Part shown: positions 1,364 to 10,610 of the stretch, piece after piece | Position numbering within the stretch: position 1 is the stretch's first letter | How the letters are laid out: each line of letters starts with the position of its first letter | Origin: a virus | Taxonomy: Duplodnaviria > Heunggongvirae > Uroviricota > Caudoviricetes | Strand: one strand, 5' to 3' | IMG/VR virus record: IMGVR_UViG_3300014039_000029 | Span: 64,001 to 74,610 of that record | DNA: 10,610 nucleotides | Made by a program: the position numbers and the translations under genes | Notes under the pieces: model-generated | What the model saw: only the letters and a program-made list of their open reading frames with translations | Told to the model about the DNA's origin: nothing | Databases searched by the model: none

Positions 1364-1411
1364 TGGGGAGATAAGGGGGGCAGCGCCCCCAGCGGCTTGC
1401 GCCGCTCCCCA
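1364..1411. repeat. Three-way-junction GC-rich element, copy 1
   Basis: TGGGGAG-ATAAG-GGGGGC agc GCCCCC-A-GCGGC ttgc GCCGC-TCCCCA; homologous to 3016-3060 and 4487-4535; extra GGCttgcGCC hairpin at 1422-1431. Confidence 0.85.
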
Positions 1412-1432
1412 CGCCCGAGGAGGCTTGCGCCA

Positions 1433-1976
1433 TTATCTGATTTGTATCAGTAGATTTTCTGTTTCAGAAATTGGTACAAGATGCCTAAATAATGCTATTT
1501 GGCAATTACCATTACCCCATAATGATTGTGTTGCTCTACTAGAATAAGGCTCTACTCCTAGAATACGACAGATGCGGCTTACCAGTATTCCGTACATATC
1601 TTTAATACCCTCTTTTGAGAAATCAATATCAATAACAATAGATACAAGTTTGTTACTTTCAAAGATAAAACGAGCCTCGTTCACGTTATTAAAGGTATTC
1701 TTTCCCCCATGCAACTATCATAGAGTTTGCTCCAGTTTTGTCTATTGAATCCACATCAATATTAAGATGCTTAAATCTGGACCAACAAAAATCAAAAGAA
1801 TCACCGAGCATAAAGCCCATAACTCCACCAAATCGAATGCCATCTATTGGGTTAGAAGACTTTACAATTTTCTTTGCACTGCTAGGAGTAACTTTCTTTG
1901 TGCTTCTAGGTGTAAAGACAAATTTGAGAACGACAGCCAAAAGAACTACCGCACCGAAAAATAATAATACTGCCAT
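1433..1976 (-). pseudogene. N-terminally membrane-anchored protein split by one extra base (superinfection-exclusion / lysogenic-conversion candidate)
   Basis: ORFs 1689..1976 and 1433..1714 overlap at TGGGGGAAAG (C5 at 1704-1708 on plus). Deleting one G gives one 180-aa frame ...MIVAWGKNTFNNVNEARFIF...; N-terminus MAVLLFFGAVVLLAVVLKFVF is a TM/signal segment; starts 34 nt after the repressor stop. Confidence 0.6.
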
Positions 1977-2010
1977 AGATAAAATTGTTAAAGCGTTATT
2001 TTTATATTGT

Positions 2011-2334
2011 TTATCTCATTATAGTTTTTATTTCGTCAACTTGTTTCATAAACTCTTCAATACTATCAGCGGTATAATGAATTCCTTTGTAGCGGATATA
2101 TGCTGCAAAGTCGTTTCTACTCTCTTCAATATCCAGTTTAACTTCTTCGGGCGATACTAACAAATGCCATACTGGGACTTCTAAAGCGATAGCCAGTTTC
2201 TCAAGCGTAGCAGTTGTTAGCGATTCAGCCTTAACCATTTGCCCAACCGCTTGTTTTGTTACTCCCATTTTATCAGAAAGGGTTGTGTTAGTAAACCCTT
2301 TACTTGTCATTATTTCTTTTATTCTTAGTGTCAT
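2011..2334 (-). CDS. XRE/Cro-CI family HTH repressor (107 aa)
   Basis: LRIKEIMTSKGFTNTTLSDKMGVTKQAVGQMVKAESLTTATLEKLAIALEVPVWHLL fits the HTH_3 pattern; divergent from the early operon with operator-like repeats between. Confidence 0.9.
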   Translation of the reverse strand: MTLRIKEIMTSKGFTNTTLSDKMGVTKQAVGQMVKAESLTTATLEKLAIALEVPVWHLLVSPEEVKLDIEESRNDFAAYIRYKGIHYTADSIEEFMKQVDEIKTIMR

Positions 2335-2335
2335 A

Positions 2336-2469
2336 TAAACTATTTACTTTCTGTTAACGAGTGCAAAGATACACATTTATATATAAAGTAAAGTGGTTTC
2401 TTTACTTAAATAACGTTAAAGGAAAGTATTTTCTTGCCTAAATATTTGCAAGAGTAAAGTATTTACTTT
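2336..2469. promoter_or_regulatory. Four operator-like sites, consensus TAAAGTATTTACTTT
   Basis: TAAACTATTTACTTT 2336, TAAAGTGGTTTCTTT 2389, GAAAGTATTTTCTTG 2422, TAAAGTATTTACTTT 2455; core dyad AAAGTA-tt-TACTTT; last three spaced exactly 33 bp. Confidence 0.7.
2364..2371 (-). promoter_or_regulatory. Repressor promoter -7 box
   Basis: Minus strand TATCTTTGCACTCG (2371-2358), identical 14-mer to the rightward promoter; no consensus -33. Confidence 0.75.
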
Positions 2470-2476
2470 ATCTTTG
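2445..2476 (+). promoter_or_regulatory. Major early promoter
   Basis: TTTG 2445-2448, 20-nt spacer, TATCTTTG 2469-2476: perfect Bacteroidota sigma-A consensus. Confidence 0.9.
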
Positions 2477-2774
2477 CACTCGAAATCAAGTTACAACGAG
2501 ATTTCAAAGAGGAACGATGGCACGTTTAGCCCAATCACGTTTAACTACCTCTATAAAGTAATAGCTTAGTCGGGAAATGGGGAAGAGATAGAACTTCTAA
2601 AACATCAAAGGAAAATGCAACCCAGTTAGCGAGACACTGCCAAAACCGCAAAGACAAAGAAGTCTCAAACACTCTTCTAGGACGGAAGCAAACACCCAGT
2701 CGTGTTAGACTGGTTAAATATCGAAACACGTTGACCCACGAACGTTAAGAGAGGGAGCTAGGCTGCATATAGCT

Positions 2775-2811
2775 TGCAGACGTTGGGAGCAAACGTACAC
2801 CTGCACTTTTT
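2775..2811 (+). terminator. Possible leader terminator/attenuator
   Basis: TGCAG-ACGTT gggagca AACGT-acac-CTGCA followed by CTTTTT, 34 nt before the first early gene. Confidence 0.4.
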
Positions 2812-2845
2812 AAACTAGAAGTTTAACATTTAAAACAACAACAAC

Positions 2846-3010
2846 ATGAAGAAGTATTTAGTTATCAAGCAGTACAATGTAACAAAGAGTACTGATGTGT
2901 CGGGACAATTCGATAACAAGGAGGATGCAGACAATTTTGCAAAGCTATCTTTCACCGCACAATGTGAGAAAAGAATAGCTACATTTTGGGTATATGAAAT
3001 GAGTGAGTAA
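2846..3010 (+). CDS. Hypothetical early protein (54 aa)
   Basis: MKKYLVIKQYNVTKSTDVSGQFDNKEDADNFAKLSFTAQCEKRIATFWVYEMSE; A-rich leader; below ORF-track cutoff. Confidence 0.75.
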   Translation: MKKYLVIKQYNVTKSTDVSGQFDNKEDADNFAKLSFTAQCEKRIATFWVYEMSE

Positions 3011-3015
3011 CACCC

Positions 3016-3060
3016 TCGGGAGATAAGGGGGCAAGCCCCCAGGGCTTCGCCCTCCCCCGA
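3016..3060. repeat. Three-way-junction element, copy 2
   Basis: TCGGGAG-ATAA-GGGGGC aa GCCCCC-A-GGGC ttc GCCC-TCCCCCGA, 5 nt after stop 3010. Confidence 0.85.
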
Positions 3061-3079
3061 GCCTAACGGACACAAGACA

Positions 3080-3316
3080 ATGAAAGAATATTTAGTTATA
3101 GTAACGGACACCCATTTTATCAATGGGAAACTCATTAGAAATAGTTACGTGATGGACTCTTTTGAGACACACGATGAAGCGGTGAACGAACTGAAGAGAC
3201 TGGGATATATATTCAGTTATGATTACCAGCACTGGAGAAAGGATAAAGGAGACAAGACCTTTTATTTCGCAGCGATTCATCAAATGGATTATCCACAATG
3301 GATTTATAACTATTAA
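3080..3316 (+). CDS. Hypothetical early protein (78 aa)
   Basis: ORF track; MKEYLVIV...SFETHDEAVNEL resembles the 2846 protein. Confidence 0.75.
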   Translation: MKEYLVIVTDTHFINGKLIRNSYVMDSFETHDEAVNELKRLGYIFSYDYQHWRKDKGDKTFYFAAIHQMDYPQWIYNY

Positions 3317-3332
3317 TAAAGGAGGTCACATA

Positions 3333-3503
3333 ATGGAGAAGACAATAACACTAACAAGTGATGAGATACAGATAATCACCATCGCTTTAGACGATAGAAT
3401 ACCAACAATTCAAAGATACGAGAGAATGGGAGCATATCCCGAGCATTTCGCTAATTCCCTCATCGAAGAGATAAGAGCATTAAAGAACAAGTTAAACTAT
3501 TAA
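3333..3503 (+). CDS. Hypothetical early protein (56 aa)
   Basis: MEKTITLTSDEIQIITIALDD...; start moved from 3219 to ATG 3333 because AAGGAGGT lies at 3319-3326 and the longer frame overlaps the previous gene. Confidence 0.75.
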   Translation: MEKTITLTSDEIQIITIALDDRIPTIQRYERMGAYPEHFANSLIEEIRALKNKLNY

Positions 3504-3520
3504 TATAGGAGGTTAAGACT

Positions 3521-3706
3521 ATGGCAGTTAAAAGAAACTACAGAGAGGTTTACACATTGTTGCAGAACCTTAAGGAGGTACGAGGAGCGGAAGCACTTCT
3601 TGAAGAGTTGTCTAACGTTATGGCATCGGACGATATGGCGGATGCACTGGAAGATGTTGCAGACAACTGGGACATCGAAGTTAACGAGGACGGAAGTATT
3701 AACTAA
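3521..3706 (+). CDS. Acidic hypothetical protein (61 aa)
   Basis: AGGAGG at 3507-3512; 15 D/E vs 5 K/R. Confidence 0.75.
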   Translation: MAVKRNYREVYTLLQNLKEVRGAEALLEELSNVMASDDMADALEDVADNWDIEVNEDGSIN

Positions 3707-3724
3707 TCAATAGGAGGTAAGATA

Positions 3725-3844
3725 ATGATAAAGAACTTATCACAAGAAGAGGTTGCCACAATAAGAAGAGCCCTCAAGCATTTTCAGAACTGGCTAGGCA
3801 GTGGAGAGGAATCCACCCTAGACAACTTAGTAGAGAACTTTTAA
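3725..3844 (+). CDS. Hypothetical early protein (39 aa)
   Basis: MIKNLSQEEVATIRRALKHFQNWLGSGEESTLDNLVENF; AGGAGG at 3712-3717; fills the gap exactly. Confidence 0.65.
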   Translation: MIKNLSQEEVATIRRALKHFQNWLGSGEESTLDNLVENF

Positions 3845-3856
3845 AGATATACGACA

Positions 3857-4102
3857 ATGAGAAAGAACAAGACTTATGAGCAGCAGAAGAAATTCTATGA
3901 TGAGAGTAACGACTACGAATCATTAGGGGCTATCTTCTTGTACTGGCTAGATTGTGGCAACGCAACCGCAAAGCAGATGCAGGAGACCTACAGAGAGGGC
4001 ACAAGAGAGTGCAAGGAGTTTATCTTTGAGGACTTGTACCACCTTTGCGACAGAGAAACCTTATACCAGTTTGTTAGAATCTTCAACTTTGGCAAGATGT
4101 AA
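3857..4102 (+). CDS. Hypothetical early protein (81 aa)
   Basis: ORF track; ACGACAATG start context shared with other genes; operon packing. Confidence 0.75.
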   Translation: MRKNKTYEQQKKFYDESNDYESLGAIFLYWLDCGNATAKQMQETYREGTRECKEFIFEDLYHLCDRETLYQFVRIFNFGKM

Positions 4103-4110
4103 ATCAAGGA

Positions 4111-4161
4111 GCGGTCAGCGAATAGAGGAGCACTTCACGTTCAAGCCGTGAGACCGCACAA
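4111..4161 (+). ncRNA. tRNA-top-half-like structured element, copy 1 (putative)
   Basis: GCGGTC(4111-16)...TCACG TTCAAGC CGTGA GACCGC ACAA: 5-bp stem with a 7-nt T-loop stacked directly on a 6-bp closing stem. Confidence 0.55.
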
Positions 4162-4191
4162 GTAATAACAATTTAAAAGAAAGGAACAACA

Positions 4192-4374
4192 ATGAAGAAA
4201 ATTCAGCTAAGACACCGCATCCAACTTGGCGATTACAAGTGTATGGACTTGTGGGACGGGGAAGTTTGGGTGGACGATTACACATCGCAGCAGGGAGAGT
4301 TGACACAATTCTACAGAGGCGGCTACACTTTGTTTATGCTAGCTAAGTGTGAATACAGATACATTAACCAGTAA
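4192..4374 (+). CDS. Hypothetical early protein (60 aa)
   Basis: ORF track; AGAAAGGA at 4178-4185. Confidence 0.7.
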   Translation: MKKIQLRHRIQLGDYKCMDLWDGEVWVDDYTSQQGELTQFYRGGYTLFMLAKCEYRYINQ

Positions 4375-4389
4375 TGGAGGGCAAGTGAT

Positions 4390-4479
4390 ATGGATATTGC
4401 ACCTTATGTATTCGGAATGCTTTTCGGCATCCTGCTAGGAATTGGAATTGAAAAGGCAAAAGCTTTGCCTGATGAGTAA
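4390..4479 (+). CDS. Small membrane peptide (29 aa)
   Basis: MDIAPYVFGMLFGILLGIGIEKAKALPDE; GGAGG at 4376-4380; fills the gap before repeat copy 3. Confidence 0.55.
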   Translation: MDIAPYVFGMLFGILLGIGIEKAKALPDE

Positions 4480-4486
4480 TAAACCA

Positions 4487-4535
4487 GTGGGGAGATAAGG
4501 GGGCACTGCCCCCAGTGGCTTGCGCCACTCCCCAC
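4487..4535. repeat. Three-way-junction element, copy 3
   Basis: GTGGGGAG-ATAA-GGGGGC act GCCCCC-A-GTGGC ttgc GCCAC-TCCCCAC, 7 nt after stop 4479. Confidence 0.85.
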
Positions 4536-4554: not shown

Positions 4555-4821
4555 ATGAAGAAGAAATCACCAAAGATGATTAACGAGCAGTTAAATCGTA
4601 TATGGGACTACTATATGAAGAAGTCTTGGCAAAATGGTGCTCCATCAAAAGAAGAGCGCAAAAAAGTAAGCGCAAGATTAAATGTGCTTAGAAAGATTGC
4701 TTGGACTTGGATAGATAACATATACGATTTGGAAGGTGTTGATAAATATGGCGACACAATCGCTTCAAACAGAGTTTGGGCGAATGCTTATCACACTAAG
4801 GTAGAGTACATGAACAATTAA
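4555..4821 (+). CDS. Basic, Trp-rich hypothetical protein (88 aa)
   Basis: ORF track; operon position. Confidence 0.75.
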   Translation: MKKKSPKMINEQLNRIWDYYMKKSWQNGAPSKEERKKVSARLNVLRKIAWTWIDNIYDLEGVDKYGDTIASNRVWANAYHTKVEYMNN

Positions 4822-7815: not shown

Positions 7816-8232
7816 ATGGCAGATAAAGCAAGAATCATAGTTTATGACGACTTGATGATACTAGACGAGACCGAGACTTTCTTTAAGGACAGCGACCAGC
7901 TAGCCAGCATAGCAAGGCAAGTACTCAGCCAAACTCCCGATGCAGAAATTGCGGAAGTTTGGGTCAAGGAGAAAATCAAGATGCGTTTCACCAAGAACCG
8001 AAAGGGAAAGATCGTCAAGTCGAACACTCTTCACCCAGGGTGGGGAGGTAGGAGAGAGGGAGCAGGTTCAAAGGGAAAAGGCAAAGAAGCCTTAACCAAT
8101 AGAGTTGTGTTCCACGTCAACGATGAAATGTTTGAGTTTCTCGATGCTTTAGGGAAGAGAAAGCCCGAGTGGATAAGGCTAGCGGTCAAGGAGAAACGAG
8201 AACGAGAGGAAAACGAAAAGGGTAGCCAGTGA
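7816..8232 (+). CDS. Probable DNA-binding protein, C-terminal ribbon-helix-helix preceded by WGGRREGAG motif (138 aa)
   Basis: HPGWGGRREGAGSKGKGKEALTNRVVFHVNDEMFEFLDALGKRKPEWIRLAVKEK: GGxRxGAG motif plus alternating beta strand and two helices. Confidence 0.6.
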   Translation: MADKARIIVYDDLMILDETETFFKDSDQLASIARQVLSQTPDAEIAEVWVKEKIKMRFTKNRKGKIVKSNTLHPGWGGRREGAGSKGKGKEALTNRVVFHVNDEMFEFLDALGKRKPEWIRLAVKEKREREENEKGSQ

Positions 8233-8255
8233 TGGCTACCCTTAATTTGTTTTTT
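8218..8255. terminator. Intrinsic terminator between convergent early operon and integrase
   Basis: AAGGGTAGCCA gtga TGGCTACCCTT 11-bp stem, then AATTTGTTTTTT on plus; A-run to the left could serve the minus strand. Confidence 0.8.
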
Positions 8256-8301: not shown

Positions 8302-8344
8302 ATGTTATCAGATATGTTATCAAATCTTCCCTTCTATGTTATCA
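8302..8344. repeat. Three ATGTTATCA repeats at the integrase 3' end
   Basis: Exact 9-mers at 8302, 8314, 8336; related TGATAACT at 8265. Confidence 0.85.
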
Positions 8345-9456
8345 AATGCCGAATAGACATCACGATTGAGTGTGCGAGCGTATCTTTGCGTTTGCCTGAT
8401 GTTCGTATGACCGAGCACCTTTGCCACGATGTTGAGTGGCATCCCGAACGAAAGAAAGAGGGTGGCAGCCGTAGCCCTGCCCATGTGGCTGTGCAGCTTG
8501 GGCACTCCGACGATGGCACCGATGGCTTTCAGATACTCGTTGTATTTCTGATTGCTGATTTGAGGAAGGTGGAAATTGTATTTCTTGAGGATGGCAACCG
8601 CACTACCCAACAGCTGAAACGTGAAGTCAGTATCTGTCTTCACTCGCTTTCCGTGATAGTAGTATTTTCCGTTTCTCTCCTTGCACTCGGTGAAATCGAA
8701 AGCCATGAGGTCGGAGTAAGCCAGCCCGGTGTAGCACTGCATCAAGAACAAATCCCTTGCCTTTACTAGATAATCCACCTCTAGGTGCAATCGCTTGATA
8801 CTCTCGAACTTATCTATCGGAAGGCAATCCACATACTCCTTGTCGCCCTTGGCAATCTTGAAAGGCAGGTGGTTGTAAGGGTTCTTATCCACCAACTCAT
8901 CTATGCACGCATCACGCACGAATAGCTTGAGATACTTGTGATAGCAGTAGACGGTACTCTGTTCCAATCCCTTGGAGTGCAGGCATTCGTCCAGAGCACG
9001 CACGTTCGACACGTTGACGTCCGAGAACTCCTTAATCTTGCCCCATTTCTTCAAGAAATCCGTGAAGACCTTGTATCTCCGCTTGGTATGGTCGCTTACC
9101 TTGCGCTGCTTGGTGCGTTCCTCGCAATAGGCGATGAAATTGGCATACTTTGTGGAGCAGCCATCCATGAGGGCAGGAATCTCCTCTAGGTCGGTGGAGC
9201 CTTTAGCAATCATCTTGGCGATAACCTCGTTCGCCCTATCCACGAAAGCGTCAATCTGCTTGTTGAAGACCTCCGCATCCTTGCATCTGATTACATGCTT
9301 GCTGCCGTCAGACCATTGAGAAGGACACACCTTCACCCCAGTGGAGATATACTTACGCTTACCCCCGCAAGTGAACCTTAATTCCACGGAAACGGGCTTT
9401 TGAGCCGTTCCACGCTTCAATCGATTGTGAATAATACTTAAATTAATTTTTCCCAT
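8320..9456 (-). CDS. int: Tyrosine recombinase / phage integrase (378 aa), Bacteroidota IntDOT-like
   Basis: N-terminal arm-binding-like domain (VELRFTCGGKRKYISTGVKVCPSQW), core-binding domain, catalytic motifs TGLAYSDL, KRVKT, HMGR, LGH, QTQRY. Confidence 0.95.
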   Translation of the reverse strand: MGKINLSIIHNRLKRGTAQKPVSVELRFTCGGKRKYISTGVKVCPSQWSDGSKHVIRCKDAEVFNKQIDAFVDRANEVIAKMIAKGSTDLEEIPALMDGCSTKYANFIAYCEERTKQRKVSDHTKRRYKVFTDFLKKWGKIKEFSDVNVSNVRALDECLHSKGLEQSTVYCYHKYLKLFVRDACIDELVDKNPYNHLPFKIAKGDKEYVDCLPIDKFESIKRLHLEVDYLVKARDLFLMQCYTGLAYSDLMAFDFTECKERNGKYYYHGKRVKTDTDFTFQLLGSAVAILKKYNFHLPQISNQKYNEYLKAIGAIVGVPKLHSHMGRATAATLFLSFGMPLNIVAKVLGHTNIRQTQRYARTLNRDVYSAFDNIEGKI

Positions 9457-9827: not shown

Positions 9828-9888
9828 TTTTTGGGTAATTTTCTTTGATATTTAGACAAAATCTAAATCTTAACTGACCTTAAAGAGA

Positions 9889-9920
9889 TTTGGAAGTTAT
9901 CATTTTTATGCTTACTTTTG
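9889..9920 (+). promoter_or_regulatory. Rightward promoter
   Basis: TTTG 9889-9892, 20-nt spacer, TACTTTTG 9913-9920, followed by CACTCG as at the two immunity-region promoters. Confidence 0.85.
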
Positions 9921-9925
9921 CACTC

Positions 9926-10033
9926 GTCAATGTGGTGATTGATGTAAGACTTCGATATTTAATCTATGTTTTCAATAGGTTCTATATAAATCACGAAATC
10001 CCTGGGTCGGCACCACACGACTTGGGGATTTTT
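9926..10033 (+). ncRNA. Putative ~108-nt small RNA / attenuated leader with complementary loops
   Basis: Starts just after the -7 box; 5' hairpin GTCAAT gtggtg ATTGAT; 3' 14-bp hairpin AAATCCCTGGGTCG gcaccaca CGACTTGGGGATTT (three G.U pairs) plus T-run. Confidence 0.55.
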
Positions 10034-10395
10034 AATTTTCCCCGAGGTTGTTTGGCAAAGACATACGAGGTTAAATCCGTGCAGTCCTCTTCGGAGTTAT
10101 CGCCCGATATATAAAACTGCTCAGTCTAGTGTAGTATATCTATCTATGTGAATCCTGCGCTGTGCAACCATCACAACAGGTGCCCATCTTCCCAAAAGGA
10201 ATTGACCCATATTTAGATGAAACAAACTTAGTGGGCAACTAAGCTATACGTAGGCTATGGTTAGGATATTTTTACTACGTTTTCTGTAGTTGATAAAATT
10301 ATAAAAAAAATCCTTGCCGAAAGCTATCCTCATAAGGGATGGGCAAAAATGGTTCGTACACCAAAAATAAAAAGTTGAACTAAAATATAGAATCT

Positions 10396-10610
10396 ATGGC
10401 ACAAAGAACAAAGGAAGAAGAACTTAACATCGTCTTGAAGAACTACGACAAGCTCAAGGCGGAACGTGATTCCCTCAAAAAGGAGAACGAAGACTTGAAG
10501 AGCAAGTTGACTCAGCAAGAAACCTTATACAAGAATATGCTTACAACCTATTCCGAGAGAAAGGAAATCTTGCCTAAGAAGTGGAACGGAGAGAAAATCC
10601 GTGCCAAGTT
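10396..10610 (+). CDS. Coiled-coil hypothetical protein, runs off window
   Basis: MAQRTKEEELNIVLKNYDKLKAERDSLKKENEDLKSKLTQQENLYKNMLTTYSERKEILPKKWNGEKIRAK...; open to the edge; heptad pattern. Confidence 0.75.
   Translation, partial: MAQRTKEEELNIVLKNYDKLKAERDSLKKENEDLKSKLTQQETLYKNMLTTYSERKEILPKKWNGEKIRAK

Follow-up and report, generated by a model that had tools for sequence, protein, structure and literature searches.

A recurrent three-armed element at gene-module boundaries of temperate Prevotellaceae phages: a possible signal of the early transcript

The 74.6-kb genome of a temperate phage of gut Segatella (Prevotella) contains exactly three copies of a GC-rich, 48-base element with a three-armed fold, all on the + strand and all located at gene-module boundaries of the early and immunity region. 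The element is conserved in about 60 related phages and represents a real, uncatalogued family, whose job would most likely be that of an early-transcript signal. More specifically, and tentatively, we propose a structured RNA acting in cis: it would divide the early polycistronic mRNA into segments or insulate its parts, be recognised by a conserved factor and serve secondarily as a recombination joint. Its structure, its conservation pattern, its positions and the mosaicism around it are described here.

Prevotella and Segatella are dominant bacteria of the human gut and their phages are almost unstudied; to our knowledge, nothing is known about the layout of early transcription in their temperate phages. 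The element is compact and strongly constrained, adjoins the lysis-lysogeny switch and marks points of accessory-gene exchange; a HicA toxin cassette is among the genes concerned in one relative. Should it prove to be an RNA signal, it would give first access to how Bacteroidota phages process or insulate their mRNA or achieve antitermination, with a tie to the unusual use of Shine-Dalgarno-like sequences in the PR operon. If it acts at the DNA level, modular phage evolution would have a structure-specific joint of a new kind. An RNA-family entry is merited under either reading.

The stretch analysed, hereafter the window, comprises 10,610 nucleotides (positions 64,001 to 74,610 of IMG/VR record IMGVR_UViG_3300014039_000029). 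The elements (bit scores from the covariance model) and their neighbours in it are:

637-1221, conserved non-coding region of about 600 nt upstream of copy A
1364-1411, + strand, copy A, 61.9 bits, syntenic in relatives: P1 1364-1369/1406-1411; J1/2 GATAA 1370-1374; extra G 1375; P2 1376-1381/1385-1390; A1391; P3 1392-1396/1401-1405 with loop TTGC
1422-1431, + strand, small extra hairpin GGC-TTGC-GCC 3' of copy A
2011-2334, minus strand, Cro/CI-type HTH repressor
near 2371, minus strand, divergent PRM-like -7 box
2441-2476, + strand, PR-like Bacteroidota promoter (TTTG ... TATCTTTG), 535 nt upstream of copy B
2846-3010, + strand, first small gene of the PR operon (54 aa), stop 4 nt before copy B
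3015-3061, + strand, copy B, 53.8 bits: P1 3015-3020/3056-3061; J AGATAA 3021-3026; P2 3027-3031/3036-3040 with loop CAAG; A3041; P3 3042-3045/3049-3052 with loop TTC; J3/1 TCC
3080-3316, + strand, gene after copy B, start 18 nt downstream of it
4390-4479, + strand, ORF for a 29-aa hydrophobic peptide, conserved in contigs L025 and L038, ending TAA TAA just before copy C
4487-4535, + strand, copy C, 63.7 bits: P1 4487-4493/4529-4535; GATAA 4494-4498; P2 4499-4504/4508-4513; A4514; P3 4515-4519/4524-4528
4555-4821, + strand, gene after copy C, start 19 nt downstream of it

The 14-mer GGGAGATAAGGGGG occurs three times in the window, on the + strand only, and these are also its only occurrences in the whole 74,610-bp record. 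With filters off, the covariance model found the same three copies (E 1e-12 to 2e-10), the next-best match having an E value of 0.43. The three same-orientation copies of the preliminary description are thus borne out, with the limits of the second refined from 3016-3060 to 3015-3061, and the P3 pairs, outer-stem differences, fixed ATAA, single A and minus-strand P3 loops (GAA and GCAA) that it listed are all present. The minimum free energy fold is the three-way junction for copies A and C; for copy B a nested alternative is favoured by a small margin. Copy C is confined to the window's own lineage (L025, L038, L208).

In the wider family, the covariance model detected one to three copies per contig in 57 related viral contigs, and matched Segatella/Leyella prophages as well, including L205 of a Leyella stercorea isolate, always at the same sites, site A being the most widely conserved. 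All 333 P3 positions in the 67 distinct full copies are Watson-Crick pairs, and each of the five positions shows two or three pair types. The covariation that the preliminary description had proposed to look for in a larger alignment was found: on an unrefined MAFFT alignment the score was 0.136 against 0.082 +/- 0.009 in shuffles, none of 500 shuffles reaching the observed value, and pairing on that alignment was 86% against 49-66% with slid partners. P3 is constrained in structure only, P2 has 11 compensated variants over the wider family and GATAAGG is nearly invariant, a pattern typical of a folded nucleic acid that a factor recognises. In distant relatives, successive early genes are followed by reduced forms, which consist of GAAGATAAGG and a hairpin and have no P1; up to three of them occur within 1.4 kb in L156. 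Two contigs have a B copy with an internal 20-nt deletion, so that an intact junction is not always required.

No known family accounts for the element. A cmscan of the window against Rfam 15 (E<=10) gave no match to it, only two chance matches elsewhere, and GenBank phage sequences gave none; the earlier opinion that it has no name holds, and the phages that carry it are those of Bacteroidales (Prevotellaceae). ARAGORN detected no tRNA, and a tRNA-like structure was discarded on the P3 loops of 3-4 nt and the missing P1 of the reduced forms. No coding explanation was found. A riboswitch was rejected on the functional incoherence of the downstream genes, which fall into at least eight unrelated clusters, and read-through recoding because in relatives the element is followed by an in-frame TAA and then by an ATG that lies in another frame. 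In the window the two spacers are in frame by chance.

The two kinds of site differ in their transcriptional surroundings. Copy A has no + strand gene before it and abuts the 3' end of a minus-strand gene block, here the repressor and a gene at 1689-1976. On one side of site A lie variable cargo and repressor genes of the minus strand, with their 3' ends towards it; on the other is the conserved non-coding region. This region carries the late-operon promoter of the minus strand, phased T-tracts over about 170 bp and, near 972-986, a palindrome. At a distance of 49-66 nt after GATAA, 42 of 50 A-type copies have the end of a minus-strand ORF; the extra hairpin, which in relatives is GGGGC-TGAC-GCCC-like, lies directly against the stop codon with which the first cargo gene of the minus strand ends. 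A + strand promoter upstream of site A was recognisable in no relative. Sites B and C, in turn, lie inside a PR-type early operon, with a stop codon 4-7 nt upstream, close to the 5-7 nt noted before, and the next ATG about 20 nt downstream; 42 copies in relatives lie 5-31 nt past a + strand stop, and 58-64 nt separate GATAA from the next ATG. Copy B is 500-1100 nt downstream of a PR-type promoter in nearly all relatives. Strict host-type promoters of the + strand are present at 2469 and 9913 only. The terminator scan found no canonical + terminator before 8218; those at 8218-8243 and 9995-10032, with plain U-tracts, separate early from delayed-early genes. In the absence of any other + promoter or terminator around them, B and C must therefore be transcribed, within one unit, and passed by RNA polymerase. 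The + strand tails of all three copies are CGCCYAAC-like without a U-tract and the scan listed none of them, which upholds the earlier statement that these are not ordinary terminators.

Genes beside the element are reshuffled at it, as the preliminary description had suggested checking: up to nine different downstream flanks are combined with one and the same upstream flank, and an A-rich leader moves with the element while the downstream gene differs. In L128 a hicA cassette is bracketed by a full and a partial copy, and a reduced copy lies exactly at a convergent junction beside a canonical + terminator. Variants with deletions between the G/C arms are found among relatives.

Taking these positions together with the pattern of constraint, we infer the acting strand, the reader and the processing or insulating mechanism as follows. 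The element would be a self-contained structured module that a clade of temperate Prevotellaceae podophages carries in its early transcript. The core common to all forms is a single-stranded (G)AAGAUAAGG followed by the GC-rich hairpin P2, one A and the second small hairpin P3; in this phage the closing helix P1 packs these into a three-way junction. The + strand RNA would be read by a conserved factor, probably host-encoded, through the invariant GAUAAGG adjoining a helix. The polycistronic PR mRNA could then be divided into units at a single strand accessible to endonuclease between helices, while the flanking helices would cap the RNA ends and keep structure away from the stop codon and from the A-rich region in which the next gene starts. 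The element would also be a joint for module recombination, since no other sequence is conserved between the unrelated small genes, although such recombination may be a by-product. In favour of the RNA reading are the place of B and C within one transcription unit, the positions after stop codons, the travelling leader, the reduced copies after successive early ORFs, the differing constraint on P3, P2 and GATAAGG, the G.U pairs of the + strand and the failure of Rfam, tRNA and coding explanations. Against it stands site A, which faces minus-strand 3' ends without a + promoter, so that its + strand may be untranscribed, and which nevertheless keeps the same orientation and sequence. The minus-strand stable loops, the B copies with the 20-nt deletion and the minus-strand P2 plus TTATCTTC, which scores as an intrinsic terminator in L156, also argue against it. 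The mRNA element of the preliminary description suits sites B and C, as well as those reduced copies that lie between early genes; site A does not agree with it.

The search for the functional strand, for which the preliminary description had put forward a comparison of G.U with A.C pairs, gave a contradictory answer: G.U pairs favour the + strand and stable loops the minus strand. On the + strand there are tandem or single wobbles within P1 extensions, and in L067 GGGGGC/GCCUCC, with a + strand G.U, is an intermediate towards GGGAGGC/GCCUCCC. Loops that begin with U and end with C on the + strand read G..A with GC closure on the minus strand, where 11 of the 15 P3 loop types are GNA or GNNA. 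The minus strand reads GCGNAGC/GCGNNAGC, the consensus of mini-hairpin DNA, and the loop CAAG becomes CUUG. The minus strand also reads P2 followed by TTATC(TT), a terminator-like arrangement that was not among the options first considered.

An intrinsic terminator or insulator of the minus strand, formed by the P2 hairpin followed by UUAUCU(U)C and passive on the + strand, is an unlikely but serious alternative. Copy A would end PRM transcription of repressor and cargo genes ahead of the late operon for ejection proteins, and B and C would stop leftward read-through into the switch. The ORF ends near A-type copies, with no other terminator before the late promoter, the reduced copy at the L128 convergent junction and the G..A or CUUG loops agree with this, and all four L156 copies rank best among minus-strand terminator-like sites. 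However, the window's own tails (TTATCTCC, 4 T in 8) were not listed by the scan, the tail is broken up by an A and a C that never vary, unlike the plain U-tracts of the phage's terminators, and P1 with its G.U pairs would have no meaning. Furthermore, the only strict minus-strand promoter right of B or C is that of the integrase (an arm-binding Bacteroidota type), with a strong terminator of its own at 8218-8243. Somewhat less credible is a folded-DNA signal, in which the strand with GNA/GNNA loops would extrude or fold when single-stranded and be recognised as DNA, serving as a structure-specific recombination joint, priming site or hairpin promoter. It would explain the single DNA orientation of all copies under differing local transcription, and P3 and the extra hairpin fit the mini-hairpin consensus with free middle bases, not the RNA GNRA rule. 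The mosaic junctions, bracketed hicA cassette and arm deletions fit recombination, the phage encodes NinG/Rap, SbcC-like and RecT proteins, and a conserved bent-DNA region adjoins copy A. Short GC arms extrude poorly, however, and the G.T pairs lie on the strand opposite the stable-loop strand. No phage primase or dedicated recombinase was found. Pfam/PHROGs searches gave no RNA polymerase for the proteins of at least 493 aa apart from SbcC, terminase and portal, for the 255- and 287-aa products heading the minus-strand operon or for any part of the 5,625-aa protein, and DxDGD is absent from every ORF of at least 150 aa. The ssDNA or hairpin-promoter option of the preliminary description gains from the loop pattern but loses ground because no phage polymerase or primase was found and because this is a repressor-controlled temperate phage with host-type promoters. 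A narrower version, which we consider improbable, sees strand-specific folded-DNA recombination sites, attC-like in function but with a three-way junction and no IntI, through which Prevotellaceae phages would insert, delete or swap small early-gene and immunity/defence cassettes by their own Rap/NinG, SbcC-like and RecT proteins acting on the extruded structure.

Equally improbable is put- or nut-like antitermination, in which the nascent element would load onto RNA polymerase past PR and carry it through the terminators at 8218-8243 and 9995-10032, so that after circularisation of the genome it would reach the 18-kb delayed-early block. The distance of copy B from the PR-type promoter is comparable with that of putR (about 270 nt), two hairpins lie one base apart with strong sequence conservation, canonical terminators separate early from delayed-early genes, and the logic resembles that of Tn916 canT. 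Yet site A has no promoter, L156 repeats its reduced copies, there are no internal terminators from B to 8218, and the pairing of P9913 with a terminator behind it at 9995 suggests a separate control, of Q type or by an attenuator. HK022 put, about 70 nt with long bulged stems, occurs once per divergent operon in operon orientation, and its action on the zinc-binding domain of RNA polymerase beta' and terminator resistance are proven (PMC9378689). The element shares with put two stem-loops conserved between copies past the early promoter of a lambdoid-type temperate phage, but has 48 nt, short stems and no sequence likeness. Antisense immunity in trans, by which a repressor/cargo 3' UTR carrying the complement of copy A would pair with B and C on early lytic mRNA, is very improbable. 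It explains the same DNA orientation and the identical 26-nt core at oppositely transcribed sites, but P2 of A and B-like copies is mismatched within L156, L175 and L128, the single J variant of L071 copy A (GATAG) is not mirrored in its B copy, and both partners are locked into GC helices.

Returning to the structured-RNA reading, intercistronic hairpins are known in phage early mRNAs, such as the RNase III sites of T7 and the UUCG hairpins of T4, and RNase III needs about 20 bp of duplex. The element likewise lies between cistrons of an early polycistronic transcript without terminating it, but differs from RNase III sites in its arms of 4-8 bp, its invariant junction sequence and one copy outside any + operon. 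Promoter-early stem-loops (PeSLs) of T4-type phages combine a terminator stem-loop with an early promoter (Arbiol 2010; Comeau 2014, PMC4122927). Like them, the element is a short conserved composite motif between small variable early genes, at boundaries of indels and replacements between related phages where unrelated sequences are exchanged. The PeSL-like cassette boundary proposed earlier is supported in this respect, but the defining promoter is missing, with no TTTG...TAnnTTTG in or beside the element. Moreover, the element has the conserved single-stranded GAUAAGG and a second, covarying hairpin or a three-way junction, and is present in one to four copies only, in a temperate Bacteroidota phage. 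The virion-RNA-polymerase promoters of N4, a precedent for folded DNA, are three template-strand hairpins of 5-7 bp with a 3-nt G..A loop (PMC4496689, PMC13037366). Three co-oriented copies before early genes resemble them, as may the small stems of 5-7 bp with GC closure and G..A loops on what would be the template strand; an N4-type system is disfavoured by the lack of an RNA polymerase match among the proteins searched, and here the hairpin lies inside a junction with a second hairpin in a temperate phage with host promoters. Rho-independent terminators share the minus-strand GC-rich hairpin with a U-rich tail, but that tail is an invariant UUAUC and not a U-run, there is no gene-strand U-tract and there are extra covarying helices. 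With attC and REP/BIME the element shares its location just past stop codons, one orientation, structure conserved more than sequence and variable flanking cassettes. As to integron attC, the flanking TAAC and AAAC are direct and not inverted, so that R''/R' core sites (RYYYAAC ... GTTRRRY) are missing, as is an IntI integrase. REP/BIME were discarded since host chromosomes show no dispersed copies: among 185,579 genomes scanned, each standing for one species, there were six matches. Four of these are records of Bacteroidales in which the prophage-like flanks recur, one is a MAG mislabelled Bacilli that carries both site types and one is a chance hairpin.

The three copies of a three-way junction claimed by the preliminary description are real and were confirmed in the sequence of the window, which forms the final 10.6 kb of a virus record of 74,610 bp, at 1364-1411, 3015-3061 and 4487-4535 (copies 1, 2 and 3, at sites A, B and C). 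They share a 14-mer that has exactly three occurrences, all on the + strand, whether the window or the whole genome is counted. A covariance model made from 28 members of the family, run over the whole genome without filters, matched these three copies only. In each copy the closing helix P1 is GGGGA/UCCCC with one to three further pairs; its 5′ strand is followed by GAUAA, the hairpin P2 (GGGGGC/GCCCCC), a single A and a second hairpin, P3, that directly adjoins the 3′ strand of P1. RNAfold gave the three-way junction as the minimum-energy fold of copies 1 and 3 on either strand, and favoured a nested alternative for copy 2. No match to the element was obtained in Rfam 15 at a permissive threshold, ARAGORN detected no tRNA, and no match among GenBank phages resulted from megablast of the window or blastn of copy C. 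The element is an undescribed motif family. It comes closest to the conserved, structured spacers between cistrons in phage early regions and to junctions of the PeSL (promoter-early stem-loop) type. What distinguishes it from both is the invariant single-stranded GAUAAGG, the covariation of its second hairpin or three-way junction, one copy's place at the immunity boundary, and the clade of its hosts.

Scanning viral contigs by pattern and with the covariance model yielded about 90 confident copies, spread over 57 contigs; the one to three copies within a stretch all have one orientation. A structure-aware parse of the 67 distinct full copies found P3 to be Watson-Crick at 333 of 333 positions, with two to three pair types at each of five positions and stems that include GGGGC, GGGCG, GCGGC, GTGGC, GTGCG, AGGGC, CGGCGG and GGGCC. 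The core of P1 is invariant and its complementary extensions are lineage-specific. Even on an unrefined MAFFT alignment, in which some P3 arms are out of register, the pair count lay above all 500 shuffles and all slid controls. Distant relatives (L156, L065, L175, L128, L166 and L207) carry reduced forms, located after successive early ORFs, in which (G)AAGATAAGG runs into a hairpin whose sequence varies with full compensation (GGAGGGGC/GCCCCTCC, GGTGGGGC/GCCCCACC, GGGAGGC/GCCTCCC, GGGCGGC/GCCGCCC and GGGCC/GGCCC), in most cases followed by A and a tiny hairpin. GATAAGG adjoining a helix is therefore all that stays nearly constant across the whole family. Elsewhere in the genome of the window no reduced copies were found. 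A conformational switch between junction and nested hairpin was rejected, the alternative pairing existing only where P3 resembles P2 and not being conserved. The distant relatives have another intercistronic element (L156:4273 and L065:7934) that likewise starts with GATAAGG; within it is GGGTTCGAGACCC, which resembles a tRNA T-arm.

In this temperate, lambdoid-style podophage of Prevotellaceae the copies are surrounded by the following features of the window.

637-1221: non-coding region conserved across relatives
2011-2334, minus strand: Cro/CI-type repressor
2371, minus strand, and 2469, plus strand: divergent Bacteroidota promoters (TAnnTTTG)
4390-4479: ORF of a 29-aa peptide, strongly hydrophobic and kept in the closest relatives, with a tandem TAA TAA end just before copy C
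8218-8243: canonical terminator, bidirectional
8320-9456, minus strand: arm-type tyrosine integrase
9913: −7 box of a strict Bacteroidota promoter, within 9885-10032
9995-10032, plus strand: strong terminator with a 15-bp stem and a U-tract, the strongest + strand terminator of the window

The positions of the element are syntenic among relatives, and in those that are near-complete (78-100% by CheckV) one to three copies are clustered within 1.3-2.3 kb. At site A a 600-nt non-coding region, 68-77% conserved, precedes the element; after the element come a small extra hairpin and, at once, the stop codon of a gene on the minus strand. This ORF ends 49-66 nt after GATAA in 42 of the 50 A-type copies. 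Site B comes after the first small gene of the PR-type operon, its copies starting 0-9 nt past a + strand stop codon, with the next ATG usually 18-22 nt after P1 and a conserved A-rich leader. Nearly all relatives have a strict promoter motif 500-1100 nt upstream of B, and none has such a motif upstream of A. Site C is confined to the lineage of the window. The host assignment rests on prophage copies in Leyella stercorea, Segatella copri, Candidatus Segatella violae and a Tannerellaceae MAG, the Candidatus Segatella violae copy being nearly identical to the window. A MAG labelled Bacilli bacterium (L206) has both site A and site B of the Prevotellaceae phage family; this label is probably a binning error.

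The flanks of the element are mosaic. At site A a single upstream flank can be followed by as many as nine different downstream flanks, and at site B five upstream and eight downstream clusters occur in free combination. In contig L128 an insertion (2900-3790) separates the full junction from a further, partial copy of the element; it comprises a hicA toxin gene and another ORF, which have an operator/promoter and a canonical terminator of their own. In two contigs a B copy has a deletion between similar G/C arms. In practice, therefore, the element serves as a joint for recombination. The earlier proposal of a recombination-prone cassette boundary like the PeSLs of T4-type phages holds to that extent, on the mosaic flanks and the hicA cassette, but the promoter that defines PeSLs is absent.

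The invariant AAGG(A/G)GG of all copies is complementary to the 16S 3′ tail CCUCCUU (Segatella copri 16S 3′ end, L211:640-660), and the hairpin strand with which it pairs (CCUCC or CUCCCC) is a mimic of that tail, so that a Shine-Dalgarno-like sequence is sequestered within the element. In an L156 copy with AAGGUGG the pairing is kept but the Shine-Dalgarno sequence is not.

As to which strand acts, the evidence conflicts. Towards the + strand point (i) the location of copies B and C and of the reduced copies inside a + strand operon, and (ii) the wobble pairs, all of which are G·U on the + strand, including ones in P1 extensions that have G-C pairs on either side, and a P2 change confined to one side in the related contig L067. 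This operon contains no further strict promoter (at 4021 a −7 box stands alone, lacking a −33 element), and no canonical terminator is reached until 8218; such a structure rules out a constitutive + strand terminator. We rank highest, if tentatively, a cis-acting RNA module of the early transcript: a conserved factor would read the element through GAUAAGG, the element would segment or insulate the cistrons, and recombination at it would follow from its conservation. Site A is left unexplained by this RNA module. Being the place where minus-strand transcripts must end, site A argues instead for a terminator or insulator on the minus strand, as do the order of P2 and then UUAUCU(U)C on that strand and a terminator scan in which all four L156 copies were the top minus-strand terminator-like sites; the copies of the window were not ranked so, and we hold this alternative to be unlikely.

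Also on the minus-strand side, the loop ends, fixed as U..C on the + strand, read G..A with GC closure and free middle bases, a pattern that is the GCGNAGC/GCGNNAGC mini-hairpin consensus, and the loop CAAG reads CUUG. A signal in folded DNA, against which the + strand G·U pairs are to be weighed, is given a lower place still. Put-like antitermination on the early operon appears improbable, and the least credence goes to pairing in trans of the 3′ end of the repressor transcript with copies B and C, an antisense arrangement for which coordinated change between copies A and B was looked for but not seen.

Other identities were discarded. An N4-type promoter failed a defining test: a virion or phage RNA polymerase was looked for and not found, the examined proteins of the phage include no RNA polymerase or primase, and the DxDGD motif is absent from every long ORF. 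A REP element was likewise rejected on a defining test, and a riboswitch because the downstream genes are unrelated. Stop-codon read-through or recoding was dismissed since both spacers of the window are in frame with the next gene but the frame is broken in relatives, and attC since the flanking TAAC boxes are direct, not inverted, repeats. A mimic of the tRNA acceptor/T-arm is at odds with the variable length of P1 and its absence in reduced forms. The likeness to rrn boxA fails in that the Segatella copri 16S leader and spacer have a GUUCU...ACAUUGAAAA-type element and not GAUAAGG, and TTATC...CACA has no 9-mer match to a DnaA box. A + strand promoter at 771 has only 12 nt between its −33 and −7 boxes and lies in a region that is not conserved.

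In the wider setting, the ORF at 4390-4479 could encode a small membrane peptide or be a type I toxin-like gene. The region 637-1221 contains a palindrome (GTACGCACGTGCGCA-like) at about 972-986 and some ten T-tracts phased at 10-11 bp (1050-1200); it may represent bent DNA, an origin, or regulatory sequence beside the late promoter. From about 640 a minus-strand operon encodes a T7 gp14-like internal virion protein and a 5,625-aa polyvalent ParB/methyltransferase/Sno-helicase/LPD38 protein. Its first gene (1-636) matches the T7 gp14 family in Pfam only weakly, with a score under the curated cut-off, and its location upstream of the 5,625-aa protein gene suggests a T7-like ejection-protein module. 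The 9913 promoter, with the terminator about 80 nt later, precedes an 18-kb delayed-early block whose + strand genes include NinG/Rap, Ant, dUTPase, SbcC-like, RecT and a replication initiator; by analogy the pair resembles lambda PR′-tR′ (Q-type antitermination or an attenuator). Two stretches of the contig's head recur in its tail: the promoter region (window 9874-9966, genome 58-150) and the start of a 237-aa ORF (window 10395-10610, genome 1328-1543; 96% identity over 216 nt). Between them the head has about 750 nt more, among which is an RNase H-like gene. Hence the genome in the record is circularly permuted, rather than plainly linear, and its assembly ran into an indel variant.
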